Of a stretch of DNA of 64,000 bases, positions 426-63,021 are shown piece by piece. The stretch is from positions 1 through 64,000 of IMG/VR virus record IMGVR_UViG_3300044825_003843; one strand, written 5' to 3'. The stretch comes from a virus (Duplodnaviria > Heunggongvirae > Uroviricota > Caudoviricetes). The notes under the pieces were generated by a model. The model did not search any database. It was not told the DNA's origin and saw only the letters and a program-made list of their open reading frames with translations. Both the position numbers and the translations under genes were made by a program. Within the stretch, counting starts at the first letter, position 1. Every line of letters starts with the position of its first letter.

Positions 426-1202
426 ATGAAGACAATTAGACAATCACTGACTGAAATAGTTAACTTTGATTTTGTTAATGCATCACAAAAAGAAATTGAA
501 AATATACTTCCGACCTTTGGAATGAACAATGAATACATTAGTGAAATACCTCCCATGTTCTCGAAATATATGGGATGGGGCATTAAATTTTGGCAATACC
601 CAAACCAACTTAGTAAATTACTTTGTCATTTGAAAGGAAAGAAAATTAATTCATACTTAGAAATTGGTGTAAGGTATGGTGGTACATTTGTTTTAATAAA
701 CGAATTACTTAAAAGATATAATAACTACGTGGAATCTCATTGTGTCGATGTTATTCCTGCTTCTGAAATATTACACACCTATCAACATGAATTTGCAAGA
801 GATAGGTTTTATTATCACCAAACCCCATCACACAGTTCTACTTTCTTTGATACACTTACTGGTGTTGACCAAATATCTGTCGCCATTACTACAAAAAAAA
901 TTGATTTAGTATTCATCGACGGATGCCACACCTATCCTTGTGTTAAACAAGATTATGTAACCGCACTTATCTTAGGTGCAAAATACATTATCTTTCACGA
1001 CATAAGTAACACTAACTCGGAAAGTACTAGATTGATTTGGAGTGAAGTCAAAAAAAATCACAAGAAGACCTATGAATTTATTGACCAATATGAAGGTATG
1101 GACGCTAATTACTTAGGTATTGGACTTGTAGAAGTTTCACCTGAGGATGCAGTATTTCCGATGTTCGAATCAAATTATCCAGGTGTCGAGTTGTCGTTGT
1201 AA
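426..1202 (+). CDS. class I SAM-dependent methyltransferase, CmcI/cephalosporin-hydroxylase-like (sugar O-methyltransferase family)
   Basis: WQYPNQLSKLL...YLEIGVRYGGTFVL (motif I) and DLVFIDGCH match CmcI-family signature (Q.P.....IIE.G...GGS ... LVFIDSDH). Confidence 0.6.
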   Translation: MKTIRQSLTEIVNFDFVNASQKEIENILPTFGMNNEYISEIPPMFSKYMGWGIKFWQYPNQLSKLLCHLKGKKINSYLEIGVRYGGTFVLINELLKRYNNYVESHCVDVIPASEILHTYQHEFARDRFYYHQTPSHSSTFFDTLTGVDQISVAITTKKIDLVFIDGCHTYPCVKQDYVTALILGAKYIIFHDISNTNSESTRLIWSEVKKNHKKTYEFIDQYEGMDANYLGIGLVEVSPEDAVFPMFESNYPGVELSL

Positions 1203-2440
1203 TATTCTTCTATTTCCTCTGAGAAATTATCTTCGATGTATTTGGTTATATATGGGGCAAGTTTCTCCCTCATTTTCATTATTTCTTCATAGTTTTCCTC
1301 TCCTGAAGAAAGAGAAATTTCTCTAACAACATTGAAAATAATTCTTTCCATGTATTCGTCATAACTATTAAATGACCATGGTGCCAACCATTCATAGGTA
1401 TTTCTTATAAAATTAGGTAACATCTCAAACAATCTTCTTTTGAGATAAACAGGAATTACCGATTCTGTAACTAAATCATTGTTTGTACCACAGTGAGGAC
1501 AGATTGGTAAAGACTTTTTTCCTTTATGAATTGTTTGTGTAAACTTCTTTTTGCAGTTAACACACTTGACCCACTCCTCTCCTGATTTTTTTTCTTCCTT
1601 GATATTAATTTTGATTTTAACTTTGGTAACCTTTGGAGTTATACCTAAAAGTCTACAAACAGACAATCTTGTGTTTCCCGCAACTAAGTATGGTGGATGG
1701 TTGTCTGCGTATGCAACTATAGGTGTTTCAACTATTCCTCCATTTTTGAGCGGTTCCATCGAATGTTTAATTATCCTTTCCTCACTCCTACCCCATTGCC
1801 CATGTATAATATCGAACAAATCTTTATATGTTTCTATTGTCCAACTATCCGTATTTTCCATCTTCGACCATTCTTCATCAGTTAATGATTTCACATCAGC
1901 CCTTTCATAAGCACTATGAATATCATCAATAAGTTTGTCTAATTGTTTATTTGAAAAATGCTCAAAGTTTACTTGAAGAACGTCGTCTTGTAACCAATTA
2001 AGAAAATGATTCATAAATTCGTTTTCTTCCGTTTGGAACTCAGGTTTGACCCATTCGATTTTTTTTTCTTCTGAATTTTCATTAAGATTATCTACGTTTT
2101 TTCTATTCAAAATTTTAATAGACCTCAAAATCTGTTCATATTTTTCTCGACTGAGACTGAATTGACCCTCATTTGTCCAATATTGTATTGCTTCAGGTTT
2201 TGGATGTTTGATTGCATCGTAAACCCATTCTTGACCTTGTTCAGGATTTTTCAAGTTCCATAATGTAACTATATTCGAATCCCCTTCCCAATTTGATGGA
2301 ACTAATTCACCATTTACATGTGGTTCGGTGACCCACAAAACACCTTTGTTAACCAAATCAGAAAAATCAAATATTTCTCTTTCGGATTCACTTAAACCCA
2401 TCATCTCTTTAATTCTTAATATGTTTTCTTGTAAGTTCAT
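1175..2440 (-). CDS. hypothetical protein with conserved N-terminal MNLQENILRIKEMMG leader and C4 zinc ribbon (family member 1 of 3)
   Basis: Track ORF 1175..2518; conserved leader starts at internal Met (ATG 2438-2440); CVNCKKK...CPHCG zinc ribbon; start chosen by paralog alignment. Confidence 0.55.
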   Translation of the reverse strand: MNLQENILRIKEMMGLSESEREIFDFSDLVNKGVLWVTEPHVNGELVPSNWEGDSNIVTLWNLKNPEQGQEWVYDAIKHPKPEAIQYWTNEGQFSLSREKYEQILRSIKILNRKNVDNLNENSEEKKIEWVKPEFQTEENEFMNHFLNWLQDDVLQVNFEHFSNKQLDKLIDDIHSAYERADVKSLTDEEWSKMENTDSWTIETYKDLFDIIHGQWGRSEERIIKHSMEPLKNGGIVETPIVAYADNHPPYLVAGNTRLSVCRLLGITPKVTKVKIKINIKEEKKSGEEWVKCVNCKKKFTQTIHKGKKSLPICPHCGTNNDLVTESVIPVYLKRRLFEMLPNFIRNTYEWLAPWSFNSYDEYMERIIFNVVREISLSSGEENYEEIMKMREKLAPYITKYIEDNFSEEIEEYYNDNSTPG

Positions 2441-2441
2441 A

Positions 2442-3587
2442 TTATTTTTCACTTCGATAAATAACTTTGAATCTTTGTTTTTCCTCAATAGGTAATTCCA
2501 ACTTTTCGAACTTTTCATTTTCTACTTGGAATCTTTCTTCATCTTTGTATTTCCACTGACCATAAAAAGAATAAACTTTACCAGTTGTGGTATCAACTAC
2601 AGTATCTCCACCTCTCGGTTCTAACCCTTCATATTTTTTGATTTTATCTTCTATAGACATTTCAGGGTTTTCCTCTAAACTATCAAACCAATTCGTAAAA
2701 TCTTCACCCAACTTTTCTTTTAATTCAGGTGATATTCGTACAGATTTTTTATCGGTAAATTTATTCGATACAAAATCATTAAATATTTTTTTAACATCTT
2801 CGTTAATGTTTTCATCTATAACCAACACATGTTGTTGTAACAATAAAGACATCAAATTATAATCAGGGTTTGATAATAAATCTTGATATATCATTTTAAT
2901 TTCCGCCGAACTCCCCATACCACTTGTAATGTATCCAAGTTTCCTAATCATCGCCAAATAAATTAAAGTTCCTAATTTTTTTCCTCTTAATTTTTCGGGT
3001 ACTCCTTTATAAAAATGAATCCTATTTTGCGAAGGTTCCAAGTTCACGTAAGTTGTTCTATCTTTAACATCTAATTCTTTAGCACATTCGTAAGGAAATT
3101 TAATTCTATAAACCTTACCACCTTCCTGAGTAACACCATAAGCTCTTTCTAAAGATTTTTCATCTTTAGCTACCAGTGGACCAATAATTTCGAAATTGGA
3201 GGGGTCACAATTCACAACTTCAGATTTTGGTTTTTGTTTTCCCCTCAAACCATAATAATCCGAAAATATTGAATACAGCAATGAGTTGAATTTTTTTGAA
3301 CCATGGGATATCATATAGTTCAGGTATTTGTTGTCTAAATTTTGTAAATCTTTAGATAAAACAGGTTTCTTTACAAATGGGTCTTTATCAATTACAACTG
3401 AGTTTTTGAATTTAACAAAATCACCATCAGATGATTGTAGTTTATCTTGTAATAAATTTGAAATCTCCTTCTTGTATTTAGGAAAATTTTTTATATTCAT
3501 CATAACATAAGAATCTGATGGTACATCTAAGGTTTCATTGATACCCATCATTTCCTTAATCCTTTGTATGTTTTCTTGTAGGTTCAT
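2442..3587 (-). CDS. hypothetical protein with MNLQENIQRIKEMMG leader (family member 2), possible GNAT-like motif
   Basis: Track ORF 2442..3608; leader at internal Met; 1-nt spacing to neighbours; RGKKLGTLIYLAMIRKLGY resembles acetyltransferase motif A (weak). Confidence 0.5.
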   Translation of the reverse strand: MNLQENIQRIKEMMGINETLDVPSDSYVMMNIKNFPKYKKEISNLLQDKLQSSDGDFVKFKNSVVIDKDPFVKKPVLSKDLQNLDNKYLNYMISHGSKKFNSLLYSIFSDYYGLRGKQKPKSEVVNCDPSNFEIIGPLVAKDEKSLERAYGVTQEGGKVYRIKFPYECAKELDVKDRTTYVNLEPSQNRIHFYKGVPEKLRGKKLGTLIYLAMIRKLGYITSGMGSSAEIKMIYQDLLSNPDYNLMSLLLQQHVLVIDENINEDVKKIFNDFVSNKFTDKKSVRISPELKEKLGEDFTNWFDSLEENPEMSIEDKIKKYEGLEPRGGDTVVDTTTGKVYSFYGQWKYKDEERFQVENEKFEKLELPIEEKQRFKVIYRSEK

Positions 3588-3588
3588 A

Positions 3589-4065
3589 TTACTTTTTCTT
3601 TTTAACACAATTGGGGTATCTTTTACCGAACATTGTTTTCATTCCTTTCTGAGTATATCCTTTCCAACATCTCTCAGTAATTTCTGATTCGTTCTGTTCT
3701 TCTTTCATATCTGAATCTGACATATATTCGGAACAAGTTGTTTGGTAAATATCAATCAAATACTGACCAAAGAAAATTCTTGACATACTTCTCAAATAAT
3801 CCATAACATCACTAATGTAGTCCTGCTCGAATATGTTTTCGTCCACATCATCCAATAATTTATCAACTGCATAATCAATTACAGCGTCTGCATATTCATA
3901 TCCATCCTCAAAATCATCACACAGAGTTGGATATTCTACTTCTGCTCTGAATATATATTCTTTCAGTGTCTCACGATTAGCTCTCCTTTTAATTGAGTTT
4001 GGAATAGTGGACTCAGTTATACCCATCATCTCTTTAATCCTATGTATGTTTTCTTGTAAGTTCAT
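3589..4065 (-). CDS. hypothetical acidic protein with MNLQENIHRIKEMMG leader (family member 3)
   Basis: Track ORF 3589..4149; leader begins at internal Met (ATG 4063-4065); nucleotide sequence atgaacttacaagaaaacat conserved in all three. Confidence 0.5.
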   Translation of the reverse strand: MNLQENIHRIKEMMGITESTIPNSIKRRANRETLKEYIFRAEVEYPTLCDDFEDGYEYADAVIDYAVDKLLDDVDENIFEQDYISDVMDYLRSMSRIFFGQYLIDIYQTTCSEYMSDSDMKEEQNESEITERCWKGYTQKGMKTMFGKRYPNCVKKKK

Positions 4066-4116
4066 ATTATGTCTATAAAGATAAATATCTTTGTATTTAT
4101 TACTAAACAAAGCTAA

Positions 4117-4503
4117 ATGCGATATATTATAAGTCCATCTCAATTTCATTCCTTGGTTTACAGATACCTTACGGAAATTTTCTCAAAAGAAGATTTCAGG
4201 AATTACAAAAACCCTCATGTTGAAGATGGTAGCGTATGGAGAGTTGAAATTCATACTGACGACGGGGAACGTTCAATGAGTTATTTTTGGTATGGTCCTG
4301 GTGAAGACGACGATGGAAATCTACATAATGGTATGGGTAGTCTTTACATTGACTCCAATTTGGTCGACAACCTAAGAATAAATCTTAACGTAAGAGAAAG
4401 TAAAATAATTGATATTCTTGCAGATTGGGTTAGTGAAAAATTGAATGTTGAAATAGATGAAGTAGGTATTACTCGTGAACCTGGTAATCGTTCAGTTTAT
4501 TAA
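4117..4503 (+). CDS. hypothetical protein
   Basis: 128-aa ORF, strand switch island, no recognisable motif. Confidence 0.4.
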   Translation: MRYIISPSQFHSLVYRYLTEIFSKEDFRNYKNPHVEDGSVWRVEIHTDDGERSMSYFWYGPGEDDDGNLHNGMGSLYIDSNLVDNLRINLNVRESKIIDILADWVSEKLNVEIDEVGITREPGNRSVY

Positions 4504-4507
4504 TTTC

Positions 4508-4846
4508 CTATTTCTCCAATCTTTGAGTTGAGTTTCCCGAAAGGTCTTTGAATTGAACACCAAAAAACGTTTGACTTGCCCTTTTAACTCCAAAGTTTTC
4601 TACAACCCACTCTCTGATTATTTTTTTCAAGTCTCTGATGTCATCAAAGAAAAATGTGTTAGTGATATGGTCAATAATACTTTTGTCGATTACGACTCTG
4701 TTAGGATAAATTGTCATCATCACTTGACCGTCTACGTATATATTTCTACCATCGCCTTCGAACTTCATTTTGTAACCCGTAAAGTTATCCGCCAAAATAT
4801 TATAAATCAATGAATCAGATTGACCTTCGGTGATGATAATTTTCAT
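4508..4846 (-). CDS. hypothetical protein
   Basis: 112-aa ORF. Confidence 0.4.
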   Translation of the reverse strand: MKIIITEGQSDSLIYNILADNFTGYKMKFEGDGRNIYVDGQVMMTIYPNRVVIDKSIIDHITNTFFFDDIRDLKKIIREWVVENFGVKRASQTFFGVQFKDLSGNSTQRLEK

Positions 4847-5549: not shown

Positions 5550-5819
5550 ATGTATTACATTATAACAGAGGAACAGGTAAAAAGATTAGTCAAAGGTTGG
5601 AAAGTCAGTGAAGGACAGTTAACAAAAACTTTCAATTTCAAAACTTATAAAGATGTTTTGAAATTTGTTAATAAGGTAGGTTCAATTGCTGAAAAACAAA
5701 ACCATCATCCTGAAATGTTAGTTAAATATAATTCAGTAAAAGTTTCACTGTTTGACCACGGAGCCAATAAAGTTTCGGACAAATGCCACAAGTTAGCCGA
5801 CCTAATCAATAAGACCTAA
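5550..5819 (+). CDS. pterin-4-alpha-carbinolamine dehydratase (PCD/DCoH family)
   Basis: FNFKTYKDVLKFVNKVGSIAEKQNHHPEMLVKYNSVKVSLFDHGANKVSDKCHKLADLI matches PCD core (F.F..F..A..F..V...AE...HHP......Y..V...L.TH). Confidence 0.7.
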   Translation: MYYIITEEQVKRLVKGWKVSEGQLTKTFNFKTYKDVLKFVNKVGSIAEKQNHHPEMLVKYNSVKVSLFDHGANKVSDKCHKLADLINKT

Positions 5820-22604: not shown

Positions 22605-22952
22605 ATGAAAGTAAAAATAAATGAAAATATCTTCAAGGTCAAAACTTTAATTGATGAAAATTCACAAACCCTTGGAATGCAGAATAAAAGTTTTGATAAT
22701 ACTTTCGATGGGTTGCTTTTTCTGATGGGTGGAAAAGAACAATGTTTTTGGATGAAAGACTGTATTATACCCTTGGATATAATAATGATTAAAAATAACG
22801 TTATAGTTAATATTCACCACGACTGTCCTCCATGTAAAGGTGATGACTGTCCTTCTTACTGTGGTAAAGGTAATATTGTTTTAGAACTTGAGGGTGGTAC
22901 TTGTGAAGAGGTAGGTATTGAACCAGGTGATTCAATAGAATATATTTTCTAG
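22605..22952 (+). CDS. DUF192 family protein
   Basis: GLLFLMGGKEQCFWMKDCIIPLDIIMI...VLELEGGTCEEVGIEPGDSI fits DUF192/COG1430; start moved to MKVKINE (ATG 22605) to avoid overlap with divergent gene. Confidence 0.55.
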   Translation: MKVKINENIFKVKTLIDENSQTLGMQNKSFDNTFDGLLFLMGGKEQCFWMKDCIIPLDIIMIKNNVIVNIHHDCPPCKGDDCPSYCGKGNIVLELEGGTCEEVGIEPGDSIEYIF

Positions 22953-23506
22953 TTTGACTTCCAAACTTTTTCTTCTACACCAATAACAAATCCAACGTAT
23001 CTTGAAAGAACAAATAGATAGTCACTTAATCTATTCAGGTAAATTAAAATTTCGTTAGGAACTGATTCCAAAACACAAAGTCTTTCTGCTCTTCTACAGA
23101 CAGTTCTACATACGTGAGCAGTAGAAACATATATGTGACCACCAGGTAGTATAAAGTTTTTCAATTCAGGAAGAACATTATCCATTTTGTCAATCCAATT
23201 TTCTAAAGATTTCACATCTTCTGAATCAACTGATGATAATTCGAAACCTAACTTAGCATTTGGGTCTTTAGAAACTACAGAACCTATTTTGAATAGGTTA
23301 TTTTGAATGATATTCAATTGCAGTTGTTGTTCCATAAATTTAGACTTATCTGAAAATAAATGGTCAGAGAGTAACCCAATAAATGAGTTCAATTCGTCTA
23401 TGGTTCCGTATGCTTCTATTCTTAAATTGTTTTTTGGGACTTTTGTTCCACCTAATAAAGAAGTATACCCTTTGTCTCCTGTCTTTGTGTATACTTTTTT
23501 ACTCAT
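22949..23506 (-). CDS. ATP:cob(I)alamin adenosyltransferase, PduO-type
   Basis: VYTKTGDKGYTSLLGGTKVPKNNLRIEAYGTIDELNSFIGL matches PduO/MMAB N-terminus (YTKTGDKGETSL...R.EAYGT.DELNS.IG). Confidence 0.8.
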   Translation of the reverse strand: MSKKVYTKTGDKGYTSLLGGTKVPKNNLRIEAYGTIDELNSFIGLLSDHLFSDKSKFMEQQLQLNIIQNNLFKIGSVVSKDPNAKLGFELSSVDSEDVKSLENWIDKMDNVLPELKNFILPGGHIYVSTAHVCRTVCRRAERLCVLESVPNEILIYLNRLSDYLFVLSRYVGFVIGVEEKVWKSN

Positions 23507-23521
23507 ATGGTTATTTGAACA

Positions 23522-23830
23522 CTACAGACTTAACACAATTTCTTTACCTTTTCCGATTAACTTACCGTTTTTGTTTATTATCATGAATTTTTCTTTGTCT
23601 TTCAAATGGTCGGCAGTTACAGGACCTATTTTTTTTGTTTTACCAGGAAACATTTCAGATTCCAAATATATATATTTTTTTCCGTTTTCTACTTTTACAA
23701 AAGCTTGAGAAGAACCTCCATCACGAATTGGAAGTTTCAATAAAGGTGGTCTCTGTTCTTCTATTACTTTATTTATAATGCGGGCCAAGTCTTCCTCGTT
23801 CAATCTGATTACTTTTGGATTGTTTTTCAT
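23522..23830 (-). CDS. hypothetical protein
   Basis: 102-aa ORF. Confidence 0.4.
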   Translation of the reverse strand: MKNNPKVIRLNEEDLARIINKVIEEQRPPLLKLPIRDGGSSQAFVKVENGKKYIYLESEMFPGKTKKIGPVTADHLKDKEKFMIINKNGKLIGKGKEIVLSL

Positions 23831-32033: not shown

Positions 32034-33068
32034 ATGTCAACTTGGAAAGATTATATTGAAGAATTCAACTCAGGAGATACAGACTTTTTAGGAAACTTTG
32101 GAGATGATATTGGTCTGTTCGTAGATTTAATAACTCAGAAAGGATTACTTAAATACTTGAACGTTAATGCAAGTATGGAACCTGAAGTTGAGAATAAAGT
32201 TGTGTTGGCCTTTTATGAACATCACATGCCAAGTTATATAGAATTTTTACAAGAGAATTTGAGTGATGTAGAATTTGAAAATGGAGTGTTTTATTTTGTC
32301 GGTGACCCTTCAGATTTATCTACTCTTTTTGATGAAGGTAGAAATACCTTGCAGAAAAAAACTGTAGAAAAAATTTTGAGTGGTGAAGGTTTAGACTTTG
32401 AATTTTTTGACTACACAACAGACAACGTTTATTCCGACGTTGTTGAAGAATTGAATATTGTAAATTTGCAATCCTTATATGAAGCCGTTCTTTACTTTTC
32501 CAAAGACGTTCAAATAGAACCAAGTACAGAACTTTTAGAATTGATTGCTGAAGAACAAGGTCACCCTGATTTTGTAATCATAGACAAAAACAATGTTGAA
32601 AGAATTGTCGATGACAGAGAAACTTTCGAATCACTTCTTAATGATGAATTATCTGATTTGAAGGGTAATCTCATAAACCTTCATCATTGGGCTTACAATT
32701 CAGCATATGAAGAAGAAGTTTACGAGGAAGTTTGGAATCAGCTTGATAAGTTTTTTGTCACTGACCAAAAGAAATGGGTTTCAGTACCAATGTATACAGG
32801 ACCTGCTGGTTCACAAAAGATTGCAAGTACTATAGAAAGAATGAAATTACCAATAAGAAATTTACCCGAAATAATAAATGATTATCTAAGATGGAATGTG
32901 GAAGCTACATATCCAGAATCAGTTAGGTATTATGGTAACTACTCAGCAATATTGACATGGGTTCTCGACGAAAACCGTGATTATTCAAAGGTATATCCCC
33001 CTGATTTTCCTGATAGTTCTAAAGTTGATAAAAACATCAACGAAATGTTCAACGATTATATATACTAA
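32034..33068 (+). CDS. hypothetical acidic protein
   Basis: 344-aa ORF, only long plus-strand gene near the fibre module. Confidence 0.5.
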
Positions 33069-35152
33069 CCATTAAGTTTGTCTTCTATCTTTTTTAACTT
33101 ATCCTCTACCTGAGTCAATAATCTATATTGTTCTTTAATTGCTTGAGTGCAAATTGCAACAATCTCAGAGTATTTTACTTTATATCCATTTTTTTCGTCA
33201 CCATATACAACCTGTGGTAAAACCTCTTGAAGTTCTTGTGCAATGAAACCTATATCATCATCGTCTTTCTTGTGAATATGATATTTTTCTGGGTTCTTCC
33301 ACTTAAATCTAACACCCCTCAATTTTTGGATTATACTAACAGCATCCTCTATTACTTTGATATTTTTCTTCATCCTTGAATCAGACGGTGGTCCGATTGC
33401 ACCTGTTCTACCTGTCTGTCCAATATTACCTTGAGCACCTTGAGCTCCTTGTGGACCAGGTCCTCCACTTTGTCCTTGAGCTCCTTGGGCACCTGTTGCT
33501 CCTTGTGCACCTTGAGGACCCGCGGGATTACCCGCAAGGTTATTACCTTGGTCACCAAAATTTCCTTGAGCACCCTGAGTACCTGGTGGGCCAGGAGTTG
33601 GTTGACCTTGAGCACCTTGAAATCCTTGACCACCAACAGGTCCTTGAGCACCTTGAGCACCGGGGGGACCTGTATTCCCTTGTGGTCCAGGTGCTCCTAT
33701 AGGACCTGGTGCACCTGGCGGACTAAGTCCTGGTGCTCCTTGAGCCCCTTGAGCACCTTTCGAACCCTGACTTCCTGCGACTCCAGGAGTTCCTTGTGCA
33801 CCTTGTGGTCCTTGTGGTCCGAGAGCTCCAGGATTACCTGTAGGTCCTTGAGCACCTTGTGCTCCTTGCCCTCCTTGAGCTCCTTGAGGTCCCTGAGCTC
33901 CTTGAGCTCCCTGAGCACCCTGAGCACCCTGAGGTCCTAAAGCACCTTGTGCACCTTGACCACCCCGTGGGCCTTGAGGACCCGCAGTCAAAGATTGAGC
34001 TCCTTGAGCACCTTGACCTCCTTGAGCACCAACAGCTCCTTGTGCTCCCTGCGCTCCCTGAGCTCCCTGTCCTCCTTGAGCACCTTGAGCGCCTTGACCT
34101 CCTTGAGCACCTTGACCTCCTTGAGCACCTTGGCCTCCTTGAGCACCTTGACCTCCTTGAGGACCAACAGCTCCCTGCGCTCCTTGTATTCCTTGAGCAC
34201 CTTGACCACCTTGAGCTCCTTGAGCACCTTGACCTCCTTGAGCACCTTGTATTCCTTGAGCACCTTGACCTCCTTGAGCGCCTTGAGCACCTTGACCTCC
34301 TTGAGCACCTTGAGCACCTTGACCTCCCTGAGCACCTTGAGCACCCTGTCCTCCTTGAGCACCCTGTCCTCCTTGAGCACCCTGTCCTCCCTGTGCTCCA
34401 ATGTTTGCCCCTGGGGCACCTGTATTTCCTTGAGCACCTTGAGCTCCTTGAGCACCTTGAGCTCCTGTTGCTCCTTGAGCACCTTGAGCACCCTGTCCTC
34501 CTTGAGCACCCTGTCCTCCTTGGGCACCTTGTCCTCCTTGGGCACCAACGTTACCCACAGCACCCTGAGCACCTTGACCTCCCTGAGCACCTTGAGCACC
34601 CTGTCCTCCTTGAGCACCCTGTCCTCCTTGAGCACCCTGTCCTCCTTGAGCACCCTGTCCTCCTTGAGCACCTTGAGCTCCTGTTGCTCCTTGAGCACCT
34701 TGTCCTCCTTGAGCACCTTGTCCTCCTTGAGCACCAACGTTACCCGCAACACCCTGAGCACCTTGACCTCCCTGAGCACCTTGAGCACCTTGTGCACCTT
34801 GAGCACCTTGACCTCCCTGAGCACCTTGAGCACCTTGTGCTCCTTGGGGCCCTTGTGTACCTGAAGAACCTTTTGCACCTTGAGCTCCTTGGGGTCCTTG
34901 TGGTTGTCTGTTACCCTGCCATGCCGTCGTATTAATCAAAGTTCCAGCATCATTAATAAGAGTATTGGTTAATCGTAAATCTGCATTTGTAACTCTGAAA
35001 TTAGGATAAGTATTATCCAAGGACAGATAAGTAGTAACCCCTCTTCTAAATTGTAAACTAGCTGAGGTTACAACCAAATCAGTTTGGGTCGTTGCAGAGT
35101 CATAAAAGGAAATCGTCCCCGTACCAGGCGTTATCTTAATATCTTCAGGCAA
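33065..35152 (-). CDS. collagen-like triple-helix repeat tail fibre protein with C-terminal intramolecular chaperone (peptidase S74-like) domain
   Basis: about 480 aa of G-X-Y repeats ([10 protein letters not shown]...) and C-terminal [32 protein letters not shown] (SDxRxK self-cleavage motif). Confidence 0.85.
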
Positions 35153-38100
35153 TCAATTTTGTTTTTAAATATTTTATTTTTTCATAAATAGAATTTATCC
35201 TTTTTTGTTGTTCTTGAATTGAACCGATACAAAGAGCAACAATTAAACCATATTCCAATCTTTTATATCCATCGTCCTCCGTCCACACAACTTGTGGTAA
35301 TACCATTTCTACCTCCTGAGCAATATATCCAACAGAATCTTTTTCATAATAGTGTTCTTGAGCTGGGTTGAGATAGTTTTGAACTTTATCATTTTTTTCA
35401 TCCCAAGTAAAGTAAACACTTTGAAGTTTCAAAATTGTATCAATACTGTTTTTCAAAGTCTGAACTTTTGACTTCAATCTTCTATCTGAAGTAGGTCCAG
35501 TTGGTCCTTGCGGTCCTTGAGAACCTTGAACCCCTTGAGCACCTTGAGCTCCCTGTGGTCCCTGTGGACCAGCACCTGCAGTTGCAGGTGCACCAACACT
35601 ACCTTGAGCTCCTTGTGCACCTTGAGCCCCTTGCGGGGCACTTAACCCTTGGGTTCCTTGAGCACCTTGAGCACCCTGAGGTCCTCGAGGTCCAGTTGGA
35701 GAGGCACCCTGAGCACCTTGTGCACCCTGAACCGTACCTTGCGGTCCAGCAGCTCCCGAGTTACCTGTCACACCTTGAGCTCCTTGTGGACCTTGTGGAC
35801 CTTGGGCACCTTGAACACCTTGAACACCTTGTGGTCCCTGAGCACCTTGCCCACCTTGGGCACCTTGGGCACCTTGGGCACCTTGTGTAGTATTTGTAGT
35901 TCCTGGTGCGCCAGGATTACCGACCACAGCACTTGCACTTCCTTGGGCTCCTTGAGGTCCTTTCGCACCTTGCGCTCCTGTGTTAGCACCTGACGCACCT
36001 GTGTTACCTGTCCCTCCAGGGACACCTTGAGCTCCGGTCGCACCCACGGGTCCTTGAAGTCCTTGAGCTCCTTGGTTTCCTTGGAATCCTTGTGGTCCTT
36101 GTGGTCCAGGTGCTCCAGGCGTTGTGTTGGCAGCACCTTGAGCACCTTGTCCTCCTTGCGCCCCTTGAGCACCCTGAGCACCTGTATTTGCACCCTGAGC
36201 TCCTTGAGCACCTGTCGCTCCTTGCACCCCTTGAGCACCCTGAGCACCTGTATTTGCACCCTGAGCTCCTTGAGCACCTTGAGCTCCTTGTTGTCCAACT
36301 GCGCCGGTATTTAGACCCTGAGCTCCCTGAGCGCCTGTTGCTCCTTGTATCCCTAATGCACCCTGAGCACCTGTATTTGCCCCTTGAGCACCTTGTGCAC
36401 CTTGTCCTCCCTGAGCACCTTGTGCACCTTGTCCACCCTGAGCTCCTGTATTCGCACCTTGAGCACCTTGTGCACCTTGTGCACCTTGTGCACCTTGTAC
36501 ACCTTGTGCACCTGTATTTACACCTTGAGCTCCTTGAGCCCCTGTTGCTCCTTGAGCTCCTTGTCCACCCTGAGCACCTGTATTTGCCCCTTGAGCACCT
36601 TGTGCACCTTGTCCTCCCTGAGCGCCTTGTGCTCCCTGAGCACCTGTATTTGCTCCCTGAGCTCCCTGAGCACCTTGTCCTCCCTGAGTGCCTTGTGCTC
36701 CCTGAGCACCTGTATTTGCTCCCTGAGCACCTTGAGCTCCTTGAGCACCTTGAGCTCCTTGAGCACCTTGAGCTCCTGTGTTTGCTCCCTGAGCACCTTG
36801 AGCTCCCTGAGCACCTTGTCCTCCCTGAGCACCTTGAGCACCTGTATTTGCTCCCTGAGCACCTTGTCCTCCCTGAGCACCTTGTCCTCCCTGAGCACCT
36901 TGAGCTCCTGTGTTTGCTCCCTGAGCACCTTGTGCTCCTTGCACACCAATACTTCCTTGAGCACCTTGGGCTCCCTGCACACCAATACTTCCTTGAGCAC
37001 CTTGAGGTCCTTGTGACCCCTGAGCACCTTGAGCTCCTTGTCCTCCTTGGAACCCAATAATATTTGTTGTTGGTCCTACCCAAATGGCAGAACTATTAAC
37101 AAATAAAGTATTTCCAACATACAATCCACCTGAATTTAGGCTAGCCCCTGATGATAATATATTTTGTGGCCCTATTTGAAATCCCGTGGAAACTGTTGAA
37201 GATGAGAGTTGTAAAAACAAATTTTCAACATTCAACTGTAACTTGTTTGTACCATCATCGAATATGATGAATGGTTTCAGAACTGAAGCATTACCTTGAG
37301 GATATATTATTATATTAGCCATTTATTTTACTTTCTAATTCTTTTACTTCGATAAGAAGTTTTTCTATTTCTCTTTGATGCTCTTTTATCGCTTCAACCA
37401 CAACCGCGTTCAATTTGGTGTATTCCACGTAATAATATCCAGACTTATTGACACCAACGGCCTCAGGGAAATATTTCTTAAGGTCTTGGGCTATCAATCC
37501 GATAGACTGTAGTTTACCTACCTGAGAAAGATAATCATATTTGTTAGGGTCTATTTTATCATTCCATTCAAATTGAATTACTTTCAGTTTATTAATACTC
37601 TCTAACACATTTTCAAGGTTAGATACTTTCTTTTTCAATCTTTTATCTGAGAAACCTGGTGGACCTGGGAAACCAGGGTCCCCTTTAGCACCTTGAGCCC
37701 CTTGAGCACCCGTATTTCCTGTCGGTCCTCCACTTGCAGGACCTTGAGCTCCTTGTGCACCTTGAGCTCCGGTGTCCCCTTGAGCACCAAATTTTGCACC
37801 TGTAGCACCTTGAGCACCTTGTGCACCTTGAAACCCTGTTGGTCCTTGAGGTCCGAGAGTTCCTGGAGCACCTTGAGCCCCATTGGGTCCGAATGCACCT
37901 GGTCCTCCTTGAAAACCTATATTGCCTGGCGCACCTGGCCTTCCGACGAATCCTTGTGCTCCTTGTAGTCCTTGTATTCCTGTAGCACCTTGAGCCCCTT
38001 GAGCACCTTGACCTCCTTGGGCCCCTTGAGCACCTGTAGGACCATTAGGTCCAGGTGGACCTTGGACTCCTTGTGCTCCTGCAGCTCCCTGAGCACCTTG

Positions 38101-39130
38101 TGGACCTTGTTGTCCCTGAGCACCTTGCGGTCCCAAAGGGCCTTGAGCACCTTGTGGACCTGTGGGTCCTGCGGCTCCTTGGAAATTTTGAGGTCCTTTC
38201 GCACCTTGAGCACCTTGTGAACCTTGAGCACCTTGAATACCCGGAGGTCCAATAGGTCCTATAGGTCCTTGAGCACCTTGAGCACCTTGAGCACCTTGAG
38301 CACCTTGTCCACCTTGAGCACCTTGTGGACCTTTGGAACCCTGAGCTCCCTGAGCTCCTTGTGCTCCCTGAGCTCCTTGTGCTCCTTGTGGACCTTTGGA
38401 ACCCTGAGCTCCCTGAGCACCTTGTGGCCCTTGAGCTCCTTGTGGTCCTGATGGTCCTTTGGCCCCTTGAGCCCCTTGAGCTCCTTGACCTCCTTGAGCT
38501 CCTTGTGGACCCCGTGGACCTTGAGCACCCACAGAACCCTGTGCACCTGTACTTCCCACAGCACCTTGAGCTCCTTGAGGTCCCCGTGGACCTTGAGCAC
38601 CTTGACCACCTTGAGCACCCTGCCCTCCTTGAGCTCCTTGTGGACCTCTTGGTCCTTGAGCACCTTGTCCTCCTTGAGCTCCTTGCGGACCTTGAGCTCC
38701 TTGAGGTCCCCGTGGACCTTGAGCACCTTGAGCACCTTGGCCACCTTGAGCACCTTGAGCTCCTTGTGGACCTCTTGGTCCTTGAGCACCTTGTCCACCT
38801 TGAGCTCCTTGTCCACCTTGGGCTCCTTGAGGTCCGGCAAAACCTATATTCCCTTGAGCACCTTGCCCACCTTGAGCACCTTGAGCACCTTGTGGCCCTT
38901 TCGAACCCTGTGCACCCTGAGCTCCCTGAGCACCCTGACCTCCTTGAGCACCTTGTGGCCCTTTCGAACCCTGTGCACCCTGAGCTCCCTGAGCACCCTG
39001 ACCTCCTTGAGCACCTTGTGGCCCTTTCGAACCCTGTGCACCTTGAGCACCTTGTCCTCCCTGAGCACCTTGAGCGCCTTGTCCTCCCTGAGCACCTTGA
39101 GCACCGATATTTCCTATAAATCCCACATTT
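33400..39130. repeat. highly repetitive 9-nt periodic DNA (GXY-encoding ccttgagca/ccttgtgca units) spanning three genes
   Basis: visible tandem near-identical 9/18/27-nt units; all six frames open. Confidence 0.9.
35145..37322 (-). CDS. collagen-like tail fibre protein with C-terminal S74-like chaperone domain (paralog 2)
   Basis: [20 protein letters not shown] repeats; C-terminal [30 protein letters not shown]; overlaps neighbours by 8 nt. Confidence 0.85.
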
Positions 39131-39447
39131 CCTGGCGCACCTTGAGCCCCTTGTCCTCCCGCAATATTTGTGGTTGGTCCGACCCAATTCAAAGTATTAT
39201 TTAATATCTGTATTCCACCAACACTCATGAAATTTCTAATATTCAAAGTGTATCCTGAAATATTAGTGTTCGAAGGATTAACTGATAATATATTACTTTG
39301 AGTTGCAGAACTAAAAGTCACTACAGCACCCGATAAAACTTTCAATGAAATGGGTACATCACCGACATTATTTATAAAGTCGATAAAAGGAATTCTGTCA
39401 GGTTGTTGAACCAACCGACTCGGAACTATTTTAATGTTTAGACCCAT
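37315..39447 (-). CDS. collagen-like tail fibre protein with C-terminal S74-like chaperone domain (paralog 3)
   Basis: [16 protein letters not shown] repeats; C-terminal [30 protein letters not shown]. Confidence 0.85.
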
Positions 39448-54874: not shown

Positions 54875-55672
54875 TTATAAATAATCAAACAAAGAACCTG
54901 ACTCATTTCTAAGTTTTCTAAGTGCCTTTTCTTTGATTTGTCTGACCCTTTCTTTAGTTAATTCGAAATCATTTCCAATGTCTTCTAATGTTCTTGTATT
55001 ACCTGATAAACCGAAATAATCTTCAATTATTATACGTTCTCTTTCGTCCAAAACATCGAGCATCGATAGTAATTTATCTTTTAAAGTATGTTCGGTATTT
55101 AATCCTGAATCAGGACTTTCGACGTTAGGGTTTATTACAACATCCATCAAGGTATCTCCGTCTTCATTAAGTGGTGTTTCAAGGTCAACAGTATATGGTA
55201 AGTTAGCAAACCTATCAGATAACTCTTCTCCATTTATTTCTTGTTCCTTTTTTGCCTTATGTAATTCTTGAACTACGTTCACAGGGAACCTAATGGTTCT
55301 CGCGTTCTCATTTAGCGACTGTAATATAGATTGTCTAATCCACCAAACAGCATATGATATAAACCTCAAATTTTTCGACCAATCAAAGTTCTCTATCGCC
55401 TTTAAAAGACCATAGTTACCTTCAGCAATTAAATCTGAAAGGTCTAGTCCTTGGTTTTGATATTGTTTACTTACAGTAATAACAAACCTCAGGTTACCTT
55501 CTAATATTTCTTTTTTAATCTCTTCCTTTTGTCTTGGAGTTACACTTCCAGAAAGCATAAGTTTTGCCAACTCTTTTTCTCTTTCAGGTGTCATGACAGT
55601 CAACTTCCTGATGTCTTTAAGATAAACTGAAATCTCTTCTTGATTAATTGGAATTACTGATTTTTCTTTCAT
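54875..55672 (-). CDS. RNA polymerase sigma-70 family factor
   Basis: region 2 LRFVITVSKQYQNQGLDLSDLIAEGNYGLLKAIENFD...FISYAVWWIRQSI; region 4 TLEDIGNDFELTKERVRQIKEKALRKLR. Confidence 0.85.
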   Translation of the reverse strand: MKEKSVIPINQEEISVYLKDIRKLTVMTPEREKELAKLMLSGSVTPRQKEEIKKEILEGNLRFVITVSKQYQNQGLDLSDLIAEGNYGLLKAIENFDWSKNLRFISYAVWWIRQSILQSLNENARTIRFPVNVVQELHKAKKEQEINGEELSDRFANLPYTVDLETPLNEDGDTLMDVVINPNVESPDSGLNTEHTLKDKLLSMLDVLDERERIIIEDYFGLSGNTRTLEDIGNDFELTKERVRQIKEKALRKLRNESGSLFDYL

Positions 55673-57727: not shown

Positions 57728-58660
57728 TTAATAAGTTGAGTATTTTTTTTCGAATTCGTTAAGAAAATCAATTTTTTCCTGATAACCTAAGAATAAAGGT
57801 GCAAAGTCTATTGGAATTTCACCTGGTCCTGTTCTTTCATGAATCATTTTGGAAAGTACATGGTCCCTTACTTTATAGAACATATCGTCTCTTCTTGCAA
57901 TAACATAATCACCATTCTCAACGGTATTTGAAGCTCTTTTCTGAATACCGAATGATGTTCCATCTCTAACCCACATATCACTAGCAGAAGTAAACCAATA
58001 GGATAATTCATCATTTTGGTGCCCCCATAAAAAATCGTAATGTATTTTTAAATCTTCACCAACTATAACTTCAGGGTCGTATCTATAACTTTCAGCAACT
58101 TTTCTTGAGAAAAGAACTAACCTTGCATAGTTTGGGTTACTTATACCATCAACTAGCGGGTCTTTACCAAAAAACATATTACCTCTGTAATCAATGTAAT
58201 TTGCCCCCCAAAGACTGCCGAAATTACCTGATGCGAGTTGAGCATCGTTTCCATTTTTTCTTGGAAAAATTGAATCGCAAGGACATGTTGCCATCGCATC
58301 CGTGTTCGGATATTTTTTCAAATGTCTTTCTACTTGTTGTAAAAAGGTTGGATAAAAGAAATCATCTCCATCTAATTGTGTTAGATGTGTAAAGTCTTTA
58401 GTCATGAAATATTCGAATACAGTATTCTTACCTGTTGAAGGCGTGCCATCTGACTTGGTGACCACATAGGGTATATGGTTATTTTCACAATATTTTGCCA
58501 TTTGACTCACAAAACTACTATCTACACTATTGATTACCAAATGAACTTCATACTTTATAGAATAGTTTCTTTGGTTTAATGCTGTTTGTATACATCTAAT
58601 TGCTCTTGAGACATCCGAAGATACCAGAGGACAAATCATTAATTTTATTTCTTTACACAT
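57728..58660 (-). CDS. putative glycosyltransferase (GT-A-like)
   Basis: ICPLVSSD...EVHLVINSVD and LDGDDFFYP (DxD). Confidence 0.35.
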   Translation of the reverse strand: MCKEIKLMICPLVSSDVSRAIRCIQTALNQRNYSIKYEVHLVINSVDSSFVSQMAKYCENNHIPYVVTKSDGTPSTGKNTVFEYFMTKDFTHLTQLDGDDFFYPTFLQQVERHLKKYPNTDAMATCPCDSIFPRKNGNDAQLASGNFGSLWGANYIDYRGNMFFGKDPLVDGISNPNYARLVLFSRKVAESYRYDPEVIVGEDLKIHYDFLWGHQNDELSYWFTSASDMWVRDGTSFGIQKRASNTVENGDYVIARRDDMFYKVRDHVLSKMIHERTGPGEIPIDFAPLFLGYQEKIDFLNEFEKKYSTY

Positions 58661-61035
58661 TATTGACTTACTTTTGAAATGTTATCGCTTTTTGTTATTC
58701 TAACGACGTTATTAGCCCAATTATTGACTAATGGGTTATGAGTTATGACAAATATTTTTTCAAAATAATCCCTCATTTTAGTAAAAAATTCTCCCACCAT
58801 TTCTAAGTTTTCATTACTTATTTTACCGAAAACTTCATCCCAAACTATAATATTTGGTTTAGGTAGAGAACAGACTTTAGAAAGAACTGCCCTCAAAGCC
58901 ATAGCCGCAATACTTCTTTCGTATCCCGAACCTGAGGTTATTAATTTCTCAATACCGGTATTATTATCAATCATAATAAATTCTACCTCATTTTTTTCAT
59001 TGATTCTAATCTCCAAATTGAAGTATGCAGAATCCATCATCAACCTTTGAAGTTCTTGATTTATCAACGGCATCATGGTTTTCATTATATTTTTTGATAT
59101 TCCATTTTTACCGAAGACATCCAAGTATATTTTATAAACTTTCTCTCTTTCAAATTCCTCGACAATTTTAGTAATATTTTCATGATTTTTACTAATTCTG
59201 TCTTGGTAATTTTTGATACTAATTTGGTTGGAGGTAATTATTCTCTCATATCCTCTCTTCTCATTAATCAACTCATCAATTCTCATATTAGCCTTGATTA
59301 GTTGCCCATCTATTTCTTTATTCTTTTTAATCTTATCCTGAACTTCAAGGAACCTCCTTTTCTTATCTTTGAGTTGGTCTAACTTGATAGTAATAGATTC
59401 CAAGGTAATCTCAAACTTTTCTTTGATAAGTTTATTTTTTTCATACTCATCAAAGTCCTTCTTGAGCTGTATATATGATTTTTCCTTGTAATCTAAATCT
59501 TTCAGTTGTTTAGATAAGTTATCTACTTTTTTCTCCCAATCACCCAATTCATCAATCTTTTGTTTGGTCAAAGCCGCTTCCATCAGTTTTATACCACAAT
59601 GTTCACACTGTACCCCATTACCAAACTTTTTTATCAGTTGTTCAATATCCTCCACCTTATTCTGAGCAAGAATCAAATCATTATTTACTTTCTTGAATGA
59701 CTCCTTTATCTCATCGTGTTTATCTTCATGATAAAACTCTTTAGGTTCTACAATTTTTACCTCACTAATTTTTCTATTGGTATCAATTTTTCTTGCTTCA
59801 AAATCATTTATTTCAGAGTCCAAAACTACAGGATTCAAAACAACTAGCTCTTGTTCCAAATCATTGAATTTAGACTTTAGAAGGTTTTCTTTATAGTCTT
59901 GTCCCTTCTTTAGTCTACTATCAACGTCGTCGATGTTTTTATTGGAGCCTTCTATTTCAGACTGTAAACCTTCAATGTCTTTTGTGAGAGACTCTATTTC
60001 CTGTTTCAATGATTCCCTGTCATACAAGTTGGAAATCATACCTTTAGAGAAATTCGAATATAATTCTTTTCCTATTTCTTCTTTCTTTTTCAAAAATTCC
60101 AATCCGAGAAATCTTGATAAAACTTGTCCTCTTGCGGTTGGCTTTGATTCCAAGAGTTCTTCCAAATTAGAAGCTGTTGTCAGAATTGTCATCAAGAAGT
60201 CGTCCATAGTCCCGATTGACTTTTTGATAAAGTCTTCGGTTTCTCTTCTTTGTTCTCCGGTAAAATTCTGAAGTTGACCATCAGCTAGTTTTTTGAAAAA
60301 GTCCAATTCAGTTTTAACAGTCCAATCACCGTTTTTACTTTTTTTCCTTTCAATTTGTCGGACTAAAATATAGTCTTCTCCATCGATTTGAATCTCACCT
60401 CTAACTGAAACTTTATTCTTATCAGTAAACCTGTTGAATATTTCTTCGGCTTTGCTTGTCTTTGTTGTCGTATTAAAGAACAAAAAGATTAGTAAGTCTA
60501 CAGTTAAAACTGTTTTACCTCCGAAGTTTGGAGGGTTAGATTCGACAACAGTAATTCCATTACATTTATCAAAATCTAATACTTGATTTTCTCCGTAAGA
60601 AAGGAAGTTAGAAAATTCAATCTTCTTTATATACCACCTTTTGAAAGCAGTAACACTTGTGTCTTCGCTAATTATTTTATTTTCAACTGCCAAGTCAATA
60701 TTCATCACATCTTCGAAAGATTGGTCTAATCCTTTCGATAAAAGATAACTTCTAATCAACTCTCTTTGATAATTTTTATCTAAGATATTGAAAGATACAT
60801 CAACAGTTTGTTGGTTCTCCTCTGTAGATTTTACTTTGGTGATAACATTAACGTTAGTTGTAATATACTTTTTTTGAAAGTATTGTTTAACTGACTTCAA
60901 TCTTTCCTGTGTGAAGTTCTCGGGTGTATCTTCCCAAATTACTTGCACATAAGGATTGTCTAAACTCTCAATATCAATTTTTTTTGACATAGTGTTATAG
61001 TTAAATTCTGGAGTTGGATTGAATAAATCCCACAT
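58660..61035 (-). CDS. SbcC/Rad50-like recombination ATPase (T4 gp46-like)
   Basis: N-terminal P-loop region NFGGKT, long coiled coil with CxxC zinc hook (CEHCG), C-terminal signature SGSGYERS, Walker B IIVWDEV, H-loop ITHN. Confidence 0.75.
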   Translation of the reverse strand: MWDLFNPTPEFNYNTMSKKIDIESLDNPYVQVIWEDTPENFTQERLKSVKQYFQKKYITTNVNVITKVKSTEENQQTVDVSFNILDKNYQRELIRSYLLSKGLDQSFEDVMNIDLAVENKIISEDTSVTAFKRWYIKKIEFSNFLSYGENQVLDFDKCNGITVVESNPPNFGGKTVLTVDLLIFLFFNTTTKTSKAEEIFNRFTDKNKVSVRGEIQIDGEDYILVRQIERKKSKNGDWTVKTELDFFKKLADGQLQNFTGEQRRETEDFIKKSIGTMDDFLMTILTTASNLEELLESKPTARGQVLSRFLGLEFLKKKEEIGKELYSNFSKGMISNLYDRESLKQEIESLTKDIEGLQSEIEGSNKNIDDVDSRLKKGQDYKENLLKSKFNDLEQELVVLNPVVLDSEINDFEARKIDTNRKISEVKIVEPKEFYHEDKHDEIKESFKKVNNDLILAQNKVEDIEQLIKKFGNGVQCEHCGIKLMEAALTKQKIDELGDWEKKVDNLSKQLKDLDYKEKSYIQLKKDFDEYEKNKLIKEKFEITLESITIKLDQLKDKKRRFLEVQDKIKKNKEIDGQLIKANMRIDELINEKRGYERIITSNQISIKNYQDRISKNHENITKIVEEFEREKVYKIYLDVFGKNGISKNIMKTMMPLINQELQRLMMDSAYFNLEIRINEKNEVEFIMIDNNTGIEKLITSGSGYERSIAAMALRAVLSKVCSLPKPNIIVWDEVFGKISNENLEMVGEFFTKMRDYFEKIFVITHNPLVNNWANNVVRITKSDNISKVSQ

Positions 61036-61225
61036 ATTTTTTACTCGAATGATTCAGTTGCACCTGATTCAGTCATTTTTTTAATTTCTTCGAGCTGTTT
61101 TTTCATAGACTCGTTGAATAGTTTTTGCATTGCAGATTGAGCTGCTCCAATTTTCTGATTTCTTGATTGTACTTTTTGTCTGTGGGCTTTAGCTCCACCT
61201 CTAACTTTTGATTTTGCCATATTTT

Positions 61226-62241: not shown

Positions 62242-63021
62242 TTAATAGTTTACCAGTTTTTCAGTTCCTTCTGTCAAAGACTCAAAAGAGTTGATATAAA
62301 AAGAAAGGAATGGTTTAGGATTTGGTAAATCAACAAATGTGTATTCATCAGTTTCTACATCATATACCCCATATCCATGATTTCTTACTGTCTCACCAAA
62401 GTTTTGTTGGATGGTTGACCCAACCATGTAAGCCTTCTTTTTGCCAGGTATATCGAAAACTTGTCTTTTATGGATATCACCACACAAAACTATATCGCAT
62501 CCTTTGAACTTATCTTTATCATACCCTTCCTCAAACTTATATCCAATATCAGTTGTGAGACCTTGTATAGGACCATGAAAAAGACCTATATTCTTTTTAC
62601 TACTTTTTGATATGTCGGGAGGTAGATTATGTTCAACCAATGAGTAAACACACCAATTTATATTTTGGTCTTCGTACACTCCTCGATTTTTGAGATAAAC
62701 AATATTTTCATCTTGGAGTGAATCTACGATAGGTGTGAGAGCATCTAGTCTTGAACTATTATTCTCCAAGAAGTCGTGATTACCGATTACAATGATAGTT
62801 TTAGCAATTTTAGAACATTCTGTGAGAACCCATGCAACAAACTCAACGAGTTCAGGTGTCATCTGATTCTTTGAATGTACCAAGTCACCGGTAAAAACAA
62901 TTCTATCAGGAGCAATGGAACCCCACTCACTGAACATTTGCTTCAGTATCTTTTTGTAGAGTTCGTGGTCTTTAAATAATCTGATATGTAGGTCCGAAAA
63001 ATGAACTAATCTTTTTATCAT
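62242..63021 (-). CDS. SbcD/Mre11-like nuclease (T4 gp47-like metallophosphoesterase)
   Basis: FSDLHIR (DxH), FTGDLVH (GDxxH), VIGNHDF (GNHD), LFHGPIQG, CGDIHKRQ. Confidence 0.75.
   Translation of the reverse strand: MIKRLVHFSDLHIRLFKDHELYKKILKQMFSEWGSIAPDRIVFTGDLVHSKNQMTPELVEFVAWVLTECSKIAKTIIVIGNHDFLENNSSRLDALTPIVDSLQDENIVYLKNRGVYEDQNINWCVYSLVEHNLPPDISKSSKKNIGLFHGPIQGLTTDIGYKFEEGYDKDKFKGCDIVLCGDIHKRQVFDIPGKKKAYMVGSTIQQNFGETVRNHGYGVYDVETDEYTFVDLPNPKPFLSFYINSFESLTEGTEKLVNY

Follow-up and report, generated by a model that had tools for sequence, protein, structure and literature searches.

The 64-kb window analyzed here (positions 1 to 64,000 of IMG/VR record IMGVR_UViG_3300044825_003843, a virus of the Caudoviricetes; 'the window' always means this whole stretch) carries an array of three minus-strand genes, A, B and C, whose otherwise unrelated proteins begin with the same leader of 19 residues. 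This leader also stands at the N-terminus of hundreds of other proteins, and the DNA that encodes it appears from genome comparison to be a joint at which gene cassettes recombine. We tentatively interpret the leader as a non-homologous analogue of the capsid-targeting sequence (CTS) of phage T4 that doubles as a recombination joint, a reading to which we give slightly less than even credence.

An array of three genes with a common leader

The genes, their leaders and the junctions between them are located as follows.

3589..4065, minus strand: gene A, 158 aa, acidic (pI 4.69), the first gene of the array
4009..4065, minus strand: leader of A, codons 1-19, MNLQENIHRIKEMMGITES
3588..3588, minus strand: A/B spacer of 1 nt (T); A stop, T, B start, TAA-T-ATG
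2442..3587, minus strand: gene B, 381 aa
3531..3587, minus strand: leader of B, MNLQENIQRIKEMMGINET
2441..2441, minus strand: B/C spacer of 1 nt (T); B stop, T, C start, TAA-T-ATG
1175..2440, minus strand: gene C, 421 aa, mosaic
2384..2440, minus strand: leader of C, MNLQENILRIKEMMGLSES; its 3' end is where homology to the related contig L070 changes partner
4066..4116, no strand assigned: divergent intergenic region of 51 nt upstream of A, with TATTTAT at 4081-4087 on the minus strand and no Shine-Dalgarno sequence

An earlier note on this DNA, made from its letters alone, had described three minus-strand genes with a common N-terminal peptide, and both the coordinates and the N-termini bear it out. 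The three N-termini share the consensus MNLQENIxRIKEMMG[IL]xE[ST], and the leaders end in ITE in A and in INE and LSE in the other two, as listed in the order A, B, C. The open reading frame (ORF) listing starts A and C at earlier in-frame ATGs (4149 and 2518), and homologues show that the MNLQ start is the real one in both genes. The conservation that the note had claimed for the leader DNA holds as well, with three copies of the 20-mer ATGAACTTACAAGAAAACAT at no more than one mismatch against 0.02 expected, a number that none of 100 shuffles reached. Its spacing of 1 nt is confirmed for the starts of B and C, A being the head of the array; the two TAA-T-ATG junctions lie at 3591-3585 and 2444-2438, and TAAT-ATG is among the commonest contexts found directly upstream of the leader genes we collected. 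From residue 21 to the end, BLASTP among the three bodies gave nothing significant (best E 0.095, over 14 aa), in agreement with the claim that the bodies are unrelated, and the acidity of A and a zinc ribbon in C (CxxC...CxxC) were also found as described.

Distribution and anatomy of the leader

The earlier note had proposed a profile search for the leader, and this search shows that it is not a local feature: at E <= 0.001 and in a set of 1.84 billion representatives, 766 metagenome protein clusters (at 50% identity) matched the profile, and almost all of the 150 matches listed begin with residue 1. A degenerate DNA pattern covering the first 12 codons was found in 65 IMG/VR contigs, many of them 200-320 kb in length, versus one of 185,579 bacterial and archaeal species genomes, where it lies on a 3.3-kb contig of a metagenome-assembled genome. 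By this distribution, the leader is virus-specific. An origin from prophages or hosts was also considered, and is ruled out by the single occurrence among the species genomes. The loci of the 65 viral contigs contain 120 leader ORFs; with the window and later loci added (about 70 loci), the unique leader ORFs number 101, and their bodies form 45 unrelated clusters. No paper was found in a full-text literature search for the leader motif strings, and an exact look-up of the protein B sequence returned no record.

The majority of the bodies match no Pfam family. Those that could be assigned are VanY, PG_binding_1, BRCT, thioesterase, GNAT, thioredoxin, Peptidase_M78, P-loop kinase and ParB_N-like proteins, together with an Acb1-like protein that carries a variant leader. 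This Acb1-family (PF23474) protein, with the leader MKLNEEVLRIKEVMGLNE, is encoded at 12138-12704 of L066, a 270-kb relative of the window. The T4 57B gene, which we take to be an Acb1 homologue, adjoins ipI.

Among 97 unique leader proteins, positions 1-7 and 9-14 are fixed by the DNA pattern and regular expression with which they were collected, so that their invariance has no weight alone, and position 8 varies freely. Gly15, which like all later residues lies outside the search constraint, is present in 79 of the 97 and is followed by [LIV], one or two more residues and then Glu. A [LIVM]xE begins within residues 14-21 in 90 of these leaders (93%), 80 of them having it at residue 16 or 17, compared with 16% expected in a span of equal size from the composition of the bodies. 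On the N-terminal side, L3, I7, I10 and M14 form one helical face, and the amphipathicity (muH) is about 0.5, a value that 4-16% of shuffles attain. The leader is hydrophilic, which ruled out its being a signal peptide or other secretion signal.

Synonymous codons are mixed in the leader copies, which were gathered with a pattern degenerate at the amino-acid level (L3, TTA 40 and CTA 39; E5, GAA 60 and GAG 27; R9, AGA 46 and AGG 40; I10, ATT 59, ATA 16 and ATC 12), and homologues of bodies A and B that were found without this pattern retain the leader. Both observations argue that selection acts on the leader peptide and not on the DNA alone.

Of the structure predictions that had been advised for each body, those of A and B were made. 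The AlphaFold2 models of B (49-sequence alignment, pLDDT 84, pTM 0.79) and A (33 sequences, mean pLDDT 77) have confident bodies. Each leader is modeled as a helix over residues 3-13, with a pLDDT of about 50 in B and 54-60 in A, and is followed by disordered residues 14-25 in B and by a low-confidence stretch without regular structure in A. A low-confidence helix and an irregular linker beside a confident body suggest that the leader is a detached tag lying outside the fold of A or B, joined to it by a flexible linker. We also checked whether the leader is part of a known domain family. In A, B and C and in a further 75 leader proteins, no Pfam match extends over residues 1-19, and DUF6576, present in leader proteins P0163 and P0220, spans residues 25-52 only, clear of the leader; no Pfam family covers it.

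Leader types and recombination at the leader

In the loci, leaders of four types are found repeatedly: type 1, as described above (92 unique ORFs); type 1b, MNLQETIRRILREE (14); type 2, MKYIITExQ or more broadly M[KRY][YI]II[ST]ExQ (60); and type 3, ..RLTESDLxRIVKRVIKEQ (..RLNEEDLARIINKVIEEQ; 12). A terminal [LIV]xE is found in 88/92 leaders of type 1, 14/14 of type 1b, 12/12 of type 3 and 38/60 of type 2. Four genes with leaders of types 2 and 3 are located in the window.

4117..4503, plus strand: type-2 leader gene, MRYIISPSQ..., adjoining the array
4508..4846, minus strand: type-2 leader gene, MKIIITEGQ..., near the array
5550..5819, plus strand: pterin-4a-dehydratase-like gene with type-2 leader, MYYIITEEQ...
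23522..23830, minus strand: type-3 leader gene

Orthologous bodies can carry different leaders. The pterin-dehydratase-like protein has a type-1 leader in the related contig L273 versus type 2 in the window. Orthologous A bodies (...IPxSIKRRAN...) are preceded by type 1 (..MGINE|S), by type 2 (MKYIITESQYIFLKE|S) or by a truncated leader, with one A orthologue having an upstream domain instead, and all of these N-termini are joined at the same Glu-Ser. Some B orthologues have the variant leader MNRKLINEELNRVKSLMGLVSE, in which the helix pattern is kept on different DNA.

The genes of the array are likewise rearranged between relatives. In a comparison of the window with L070 (C 83% identical, A about 75%), the 3' end of B and the leader after it precede the body of C in the window and the body of A in L070, with DNA identity changing partner exactly past ..GAATCC, the Glu-Ser codons. 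Four different orders of leader cassettes are found in related genomes.

Window: A-B-C
L070: x-B-A
L273 and L274: PCD-B-Zn221
L066: kinase-A'-Zn154

Leader-only remnant ORFs of 23-41 aa are also present in the loci, and fused metagenome proteins look like two cassettes in one frame. The breakpoint in L070 at the end of the leader, the four orders, the remnant ORFs and the fusions together point to the leader as a recombination joint for cassette shuffling. The earlier note had missed both this role and the fact that the leader of the array is only one of several types, at least four, that these phages have.

Head genes in leader-bearing contigs

T4-type head genes, recognized by contig name or direct match, are present on 10 of the 65 leader contigs, including those of 245, 287, 298 and 311 kb, and nine of the 10 have a gp21-family protease. 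In contig L031 the head module lies 0.9 kb from a leader gene and contains, in order:

portal protein (Portal_T4, 4.7e-76)
243-aa ORF
141-aa ORF
protease (Peptidase_S77, 9.5e-22)
395-aa scaffold-like protein, very acidic and with no family match
major capsid protein (Gp23, 3e-73)

The order of the four genes that could be assigned is that of T4 (20, 21, 22, 23), and the unmatched 243- and 141-aa ORFs occupy the place of T4 genes 67 and 68. The L031 protease, whose best match is in Microcystis phage Mel-JY01, has 544 close relatives in IMG/VR, and 21 leader ORFs lie inside head-module loci. When this protease clade is aligned to T4 gp21, the ELNHP, SSRGxGS and DxV..PSxP blocks coincide, and an invariant LIE stands near the N-terminus where T4 has LIE-9, fitting the gp21 cleavage logo (PMC9026906). 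No head genes were seen in the neighborhoods of proteins P0351, P0404 and P0407, and B is present in only three IMG/VR contigs, none of which is on the protease lists.

Bodies of A, B and C

Protein A, which has more than 2500 relatives in metagenomes, begins with the leader and a helical body; a disordered linker connects these to a C-terminal module rich in Lys. For the body, an acidic helical bundle, no convincing match was found.

3592..3690, minus strand: C-terminal module of A, ..EQNESEITERCWKGYTQKGMKTMFGKRYPNCVKKKK, a beta-hairpin in the model and nearly invariant in the family

This module (CWKGYTQKGMKTMFGKRYPNCVKKKK) is better conserved than the leader. The module is also found in T4-like cyanophages, including within SSCSM1_29 of phage S-SCSM1, which is annotated as 'virion protein'; the virion proteome of S-SCSM1 has been determined by mass spectrometry (PMC9602691). 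Minimal proteins made of leader, linker and C-terminal module only are represented by P0189, P0225 and P0236. Single or repeated copies of the module occur in the Lys-rich metagenome proteins P0102, P0103 and P0105 (in P0105 next to a DUF6321 domain) and at 2338-3891 of contig L072. A part for the module in DNA binding would be a guess.

In protein B the leader is followed by an N-domain of helices, a middle part that weakly resembles GNAT and, at the C-terminus, a Tudor/KOW-like barrel similar to CarD/Mfd-RID. Protein C has the leader, a domain X (about 21-135), a ParB-like domain (about 140-290), the zinc ribbon (292-320), which matches Pfam Zn_ribbon_8 at E=0.003, short of the cut-off for the family, and a C-domain of helices (about 330-415). 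The body of P0100, a leader protein in its own right, is matched by residues 140-290 of C (E=6e-13). Another such protein, of 154 aa and encoded in L066, shares 66% identity with residues 282-415, and the fusion point in C falls right at the leader-body boundary of that protein.

Other features of the window

The window has a G+C content of 34%, and a megablast search with 25 kb of it against 50,697 phage records gave no match. Its other assigned genes include the following.

22949-23506, minus strand: full-length PduO-type cobalamin adenosyltransferase (PF01923, 1e-55)
33065-39447, minus strand: three tandem collagen-repeat fibre-type genes, about 700 aa each, with C-terminal Peptidase_S74 chaperone domains
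54875-55672, minus strand: sigma-70-type factor with regions 1.2, 2 and 4
58660-61035, minus strand: SbcC-like ATPase, making an SbcCD or gp46/gp47-type pair with the metallophosphoesterase
62242-63021, minus strand: metallophosphoesterase, with three small ORFs between it and the SbcC-like ATPase

The three collagen/Peptidase_S74 genes are probably fibre paralogues, and the sigma factor differs from gp55, the small late sigma factor that classical T4-type phages have. Among isolated phages, Mel-JY01 has the closest SbcC-like ATPase; an uncultured metagenomic phage record scores slightly higher. The window also encodes two glycosyltransferases, UDP-galactopyranose mutase, DNA methylases, DnaJ, thioredoxin, glutaredoxin, one tRNA-Met and an Amidase_2 protein that is likely a lysin. 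One of 71 scanned ORFs, not that at 61041-61220, matches the chlamydial histone H1-like Hc1 (PF07432, 2.5e-20). By its gene content, the window is an accessory and replication region of a large lytic phage.

Sequences upstream of start codons are A/T-rich and have no Shine-Dalgarno sequence. TATTTAT occurs 24 times within 60 nt upstream of the 94 predicted window genes, with 1.9 expected, usually 8-23 nt ahead of the ATG (for example, in genes starting at 39447, 31729, 50252, 44512 and 25351). In related loci, it is found upstream in 21/21 protease, 28/28 scaffold, 2/2 portal and 0/39 capsid gene contexts. One possibility is that the heptamer is a phage promoter whose transcripts are nearly leaderless; another is that it acts in initiation in hosts lacking Shine-Dalgarno sequences. 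TATTTAT cannot assign genes to a temporal class, since it precedes many others besides leader, protease and scaffold genes and may act in translation initiation.

Interpretation and alternatives

In the proposed reading, the leader is a modular N-terminal address tag, made of an amphipathic helix (residues 3-13), Gly15 and a short flexible stretch that ends in [LIVM]-x-Glu. It would dock unrelated accessory proteins on the scaffolding core of a T4-type prohead and be removed by the gp21-family (Peptidase_S77) prohead protease through a cut after the Glu; the mature cargo would be packaged with the DNA and delivered to the next host cell. The 57 nt of the leader would act as a shared homology block through which cassettes are swapped, fused, deleted and re-ordered, giving rise to tandem TAA-T-ATG arrays. 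The data show the anatomy of the tag, its distribution and N-terminal placement, the selection on its amino acids, the terminal motif, the joint occurrence with an S77 protease in related contigs and the breakpoints at the leader; prohead-core binding, leader cleavage, packaging and ejection are steps that we infer only. The Acb1-like, ParB-like, GNAT, VanY and PG-binding proteins are plausible as injected effectors.

That these genes might encode capsid cargo with a targeting or cleavage signal had been suggested in the earlier note, and the suggestion stands in part. In its favor are the N-terminal position on hundreds of proteins, the lack of a covering Pfam family, the 93% of leaders with [LIVM]xE, the detached helix and the leader contigs with Peptidase_S77; further support comes from the selection on the peptide, the exchange of leader types at the terminal Glu and, as the one indirect link to virions, the C-terminal module of A in SSCSM1_29. 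In sequence, the leader is not significantly similar to the T4 CTS, and a head module was not found in the window or in the stored stretches of its closest relatives. Several observations weigh against capsid targeting. No head genes were recognized in the 64 kb of the window or in those stretches that are stored for its closest relatives (L066, L070 and L273-L279), and the L031 head proteins, searched by tblastn, had no match in the window or its relatives. The prohead protease that the earlier note had advised looking for was thus found as Peptidase_S77 in related leader contigs and not in the window or the stored stretches of its closest relatives, so that the link to this family is carried over from other leader-bearing lineages. 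An attempt to read the specificity of the protease from the capsid protein failed: a candidate site, YLINE|AA, is conserved, and MAFFT pairs the T4 gp23 site LTE|A with SFET, which makes the assignment of the maturation site ambiguous. The residue after the leader Glu (P1') is not conserved. Glu and Ile/Leu are abundant in leader proteins; the background test of [LIVM]xE eases the worry about chance and does not erase it. Complete leaders with the start Met replaced (e.g. ..KRNLQEQISRMKSMMGIVTE..) lie internally in P0241, P0248, P0265, P0274, P0296 and P0339. The thioredoxin, P-loop kinase and pterin dehydratase cargo has no obvious use within a capsid. Finally, tblastn of the 20-aa leader against the 50,697 phage records found no match, and neither this search nor the megablast search turned up a cultured relative. 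We stop just short of an even chance because targeting, cleavage and packaging are predictions, the protease of the window's own lineage was not found and some of the cargo seems unsuited to a capsid.

A wider version of the proposal is one that we entertain with distinct doubt. In it, a widespread clade of uncultivated jumbo phages with T4-type heads would use a universal 19-residue tag and its sister tags to load hundreds of interchangeable enzymes into the capsid, to be delivered with the DNA, and the tag DNA would be the crossover site at which phages exchange cargo cassettes. Candidate cargo would include Acb1-like anti-CBASS phosphodiesterases, ParB-like proteins, peptidoglycan hydrolases and the GNAT-like protein, which with its CarD/Mfd-type RNA-polymerase-binding barrel would be a functional analogue of T4 Alt.

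Among other explanations, the one that survives best takes the leader for a docking or assembly helix retained on the mature protein, with a partner outside the capsid (a host machine, a phage adaptor or chaperone, or the protein itself) and with [LIVM]xE as a consequence of the helix-linker design. We consider this unlikely, even as it would account for the amphipathicity (muH about 0.5, within reach of 4-16% of shuffles), the detachment of the leader from the modeled bodies, its persistence inside fused proteins and the cytoplasmic, housekeeping-type enzymes in some of the cargo. It leaves unexplained the convergence of four dissimilar types of leader on [LI]xE as their end, why types are exchanged exactly at the Glu, and why the leader co-occurs with T4-type head modules and a Glu-specific protease family, and no candidate partner was identified.

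Alternatively, the conserved 5' end may be mainly a nucleic-acid device, an A-rich unstructured region for initiation or re-initiation in hosts without Shine-Dalgarno sequences that is at the same time a homology arm, the peptide being functionless. The A/T-rich upstream regions with no Shine-Dalgarno sequence, the recurrence of TAA-T-ATG coupling, the TATTTAT 8-23 nt upstream of many starts, and the breakpoints, remnant ORFs and fusions at the leader would all fit. However, synonymous codons vary freely among the collected copies, body homologues found independently hold the peptide to codon 19, well past the footprint of a ribosome, internal copies with no start codon keep the peptide, and the B-orthologue variant MNRKLINEELNRVKSLMGLVSE preserves the helix pattern; we regard this device as improbable. 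A local accident, whether a recent duplication of a 5' segment or chance, would suit adjacent genes with DNA nearly identical over 20 nt, but is refuted by the 766 clusters worldwide and the 120 ORFs in 65 viral contigs, and with three copies that differ at synonymous sites it can be practically discarded. The remaining probability belongs to functions outside those considered.

If capsid targeting is correct, the T4 principle would widen from a few internal proteins of T-even coliphages to at least 766 families in environmental jumbo phages, and a simple sequence rule would predict which proteins a phage injects along with its DNA. These are the first to act against host defence and are hard to spot without a cultured phage. 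Foreign proteins could also be loaded into large capsids by means of the leader, a short tag of natural origin that brings its own release site. Independently of what the tag does, it is a clear case of one short sequence that is a functional peptide and at the same time a recombination joint, driving the turnover of cassettes.

Comparison with known systems

In T4, no more than the first 10 residues of IPIII are needed to direct foreign proteins to the head, and residues 8 and 10 (I, E) of the CTS govern processing with the cut following the Glu; the internal proteins, among them the anti-restriction protein IPI*, have the CTS as their one conserved part and are highly diverse outside it (PMC9026906, PMC3012670, PMC5694885). 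The protease gp21 cuts after (L/I)xE (PMC9026906). The CTS is MKTYQEFIAE|A in IPII and IPIII (10 aa) and MKTFKEFTSTTTPVSTITE|A in IPI (19 aa), the latter having 19 residues and ending in ITE, as does the leader of A. More generally, the leader resembles the CTS of IPI, IPII and IPIII and the Alt propeptide in being a short N-terminal peptide on unrelated, fast-evolving proteins that ends in (L/I)xE; the genes are at variable loci, and related leader-bearing contigs encode a gp21-family protease and a putative gp22-like scaffold. Side by side, only M, Q-E and I of the two sequences align, with a gap and no significant similarity, which is too slight for homology and suggests an analogue of the T4 CTS rather than a member by descent. 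The leader also differs in its helix-Gly-linker design, its larger and more enzymatic cargo (766 clusters), the existence of at least four leader types, the conserved C-terminal module on some of the proteins and the internal copies in fusions, as well as in that its targeting and cleavage are predicted.

The giant phages related to phiKZ (phiKZ, 201phi2-1 and SPN3US) are similar in having many inner-head proteins that are cut after Glu, within a short motif, by a diverged gp21-like protease, and SPN3US has paralogues, gp53 and gp54, with identical N-termini (PMC5694885). In contrast to the leader, their propeptides are mostly longer than 100 aa and have the motif (S/A/G)xE. The head module found in leader contigs is of the classical T4 type (Gp23, Portal_T4 and Peptidase_S77), not of the phiKZ type.

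Hyperplastic regions of T4-type phages and the cassette exchange of polymorphic toxins use a short conserved border of variable cassettes as a crossover point. The differing cassette orders in genomes related to the window are akin to this modular shuffling, whereas here the border is translated into an N-terminal peptide whose amino acids are under selection, and is not a promoter, stem-loop or pre-toxin domain. Capsid-targeting propeptides as such are already known; what is new is the sequence family and its architecture, the larger enzymatic cargo and the sister tags, to which are added the pairing with a conserved C-terminal module on some proteins and a demonstrable role as a recombination joint.

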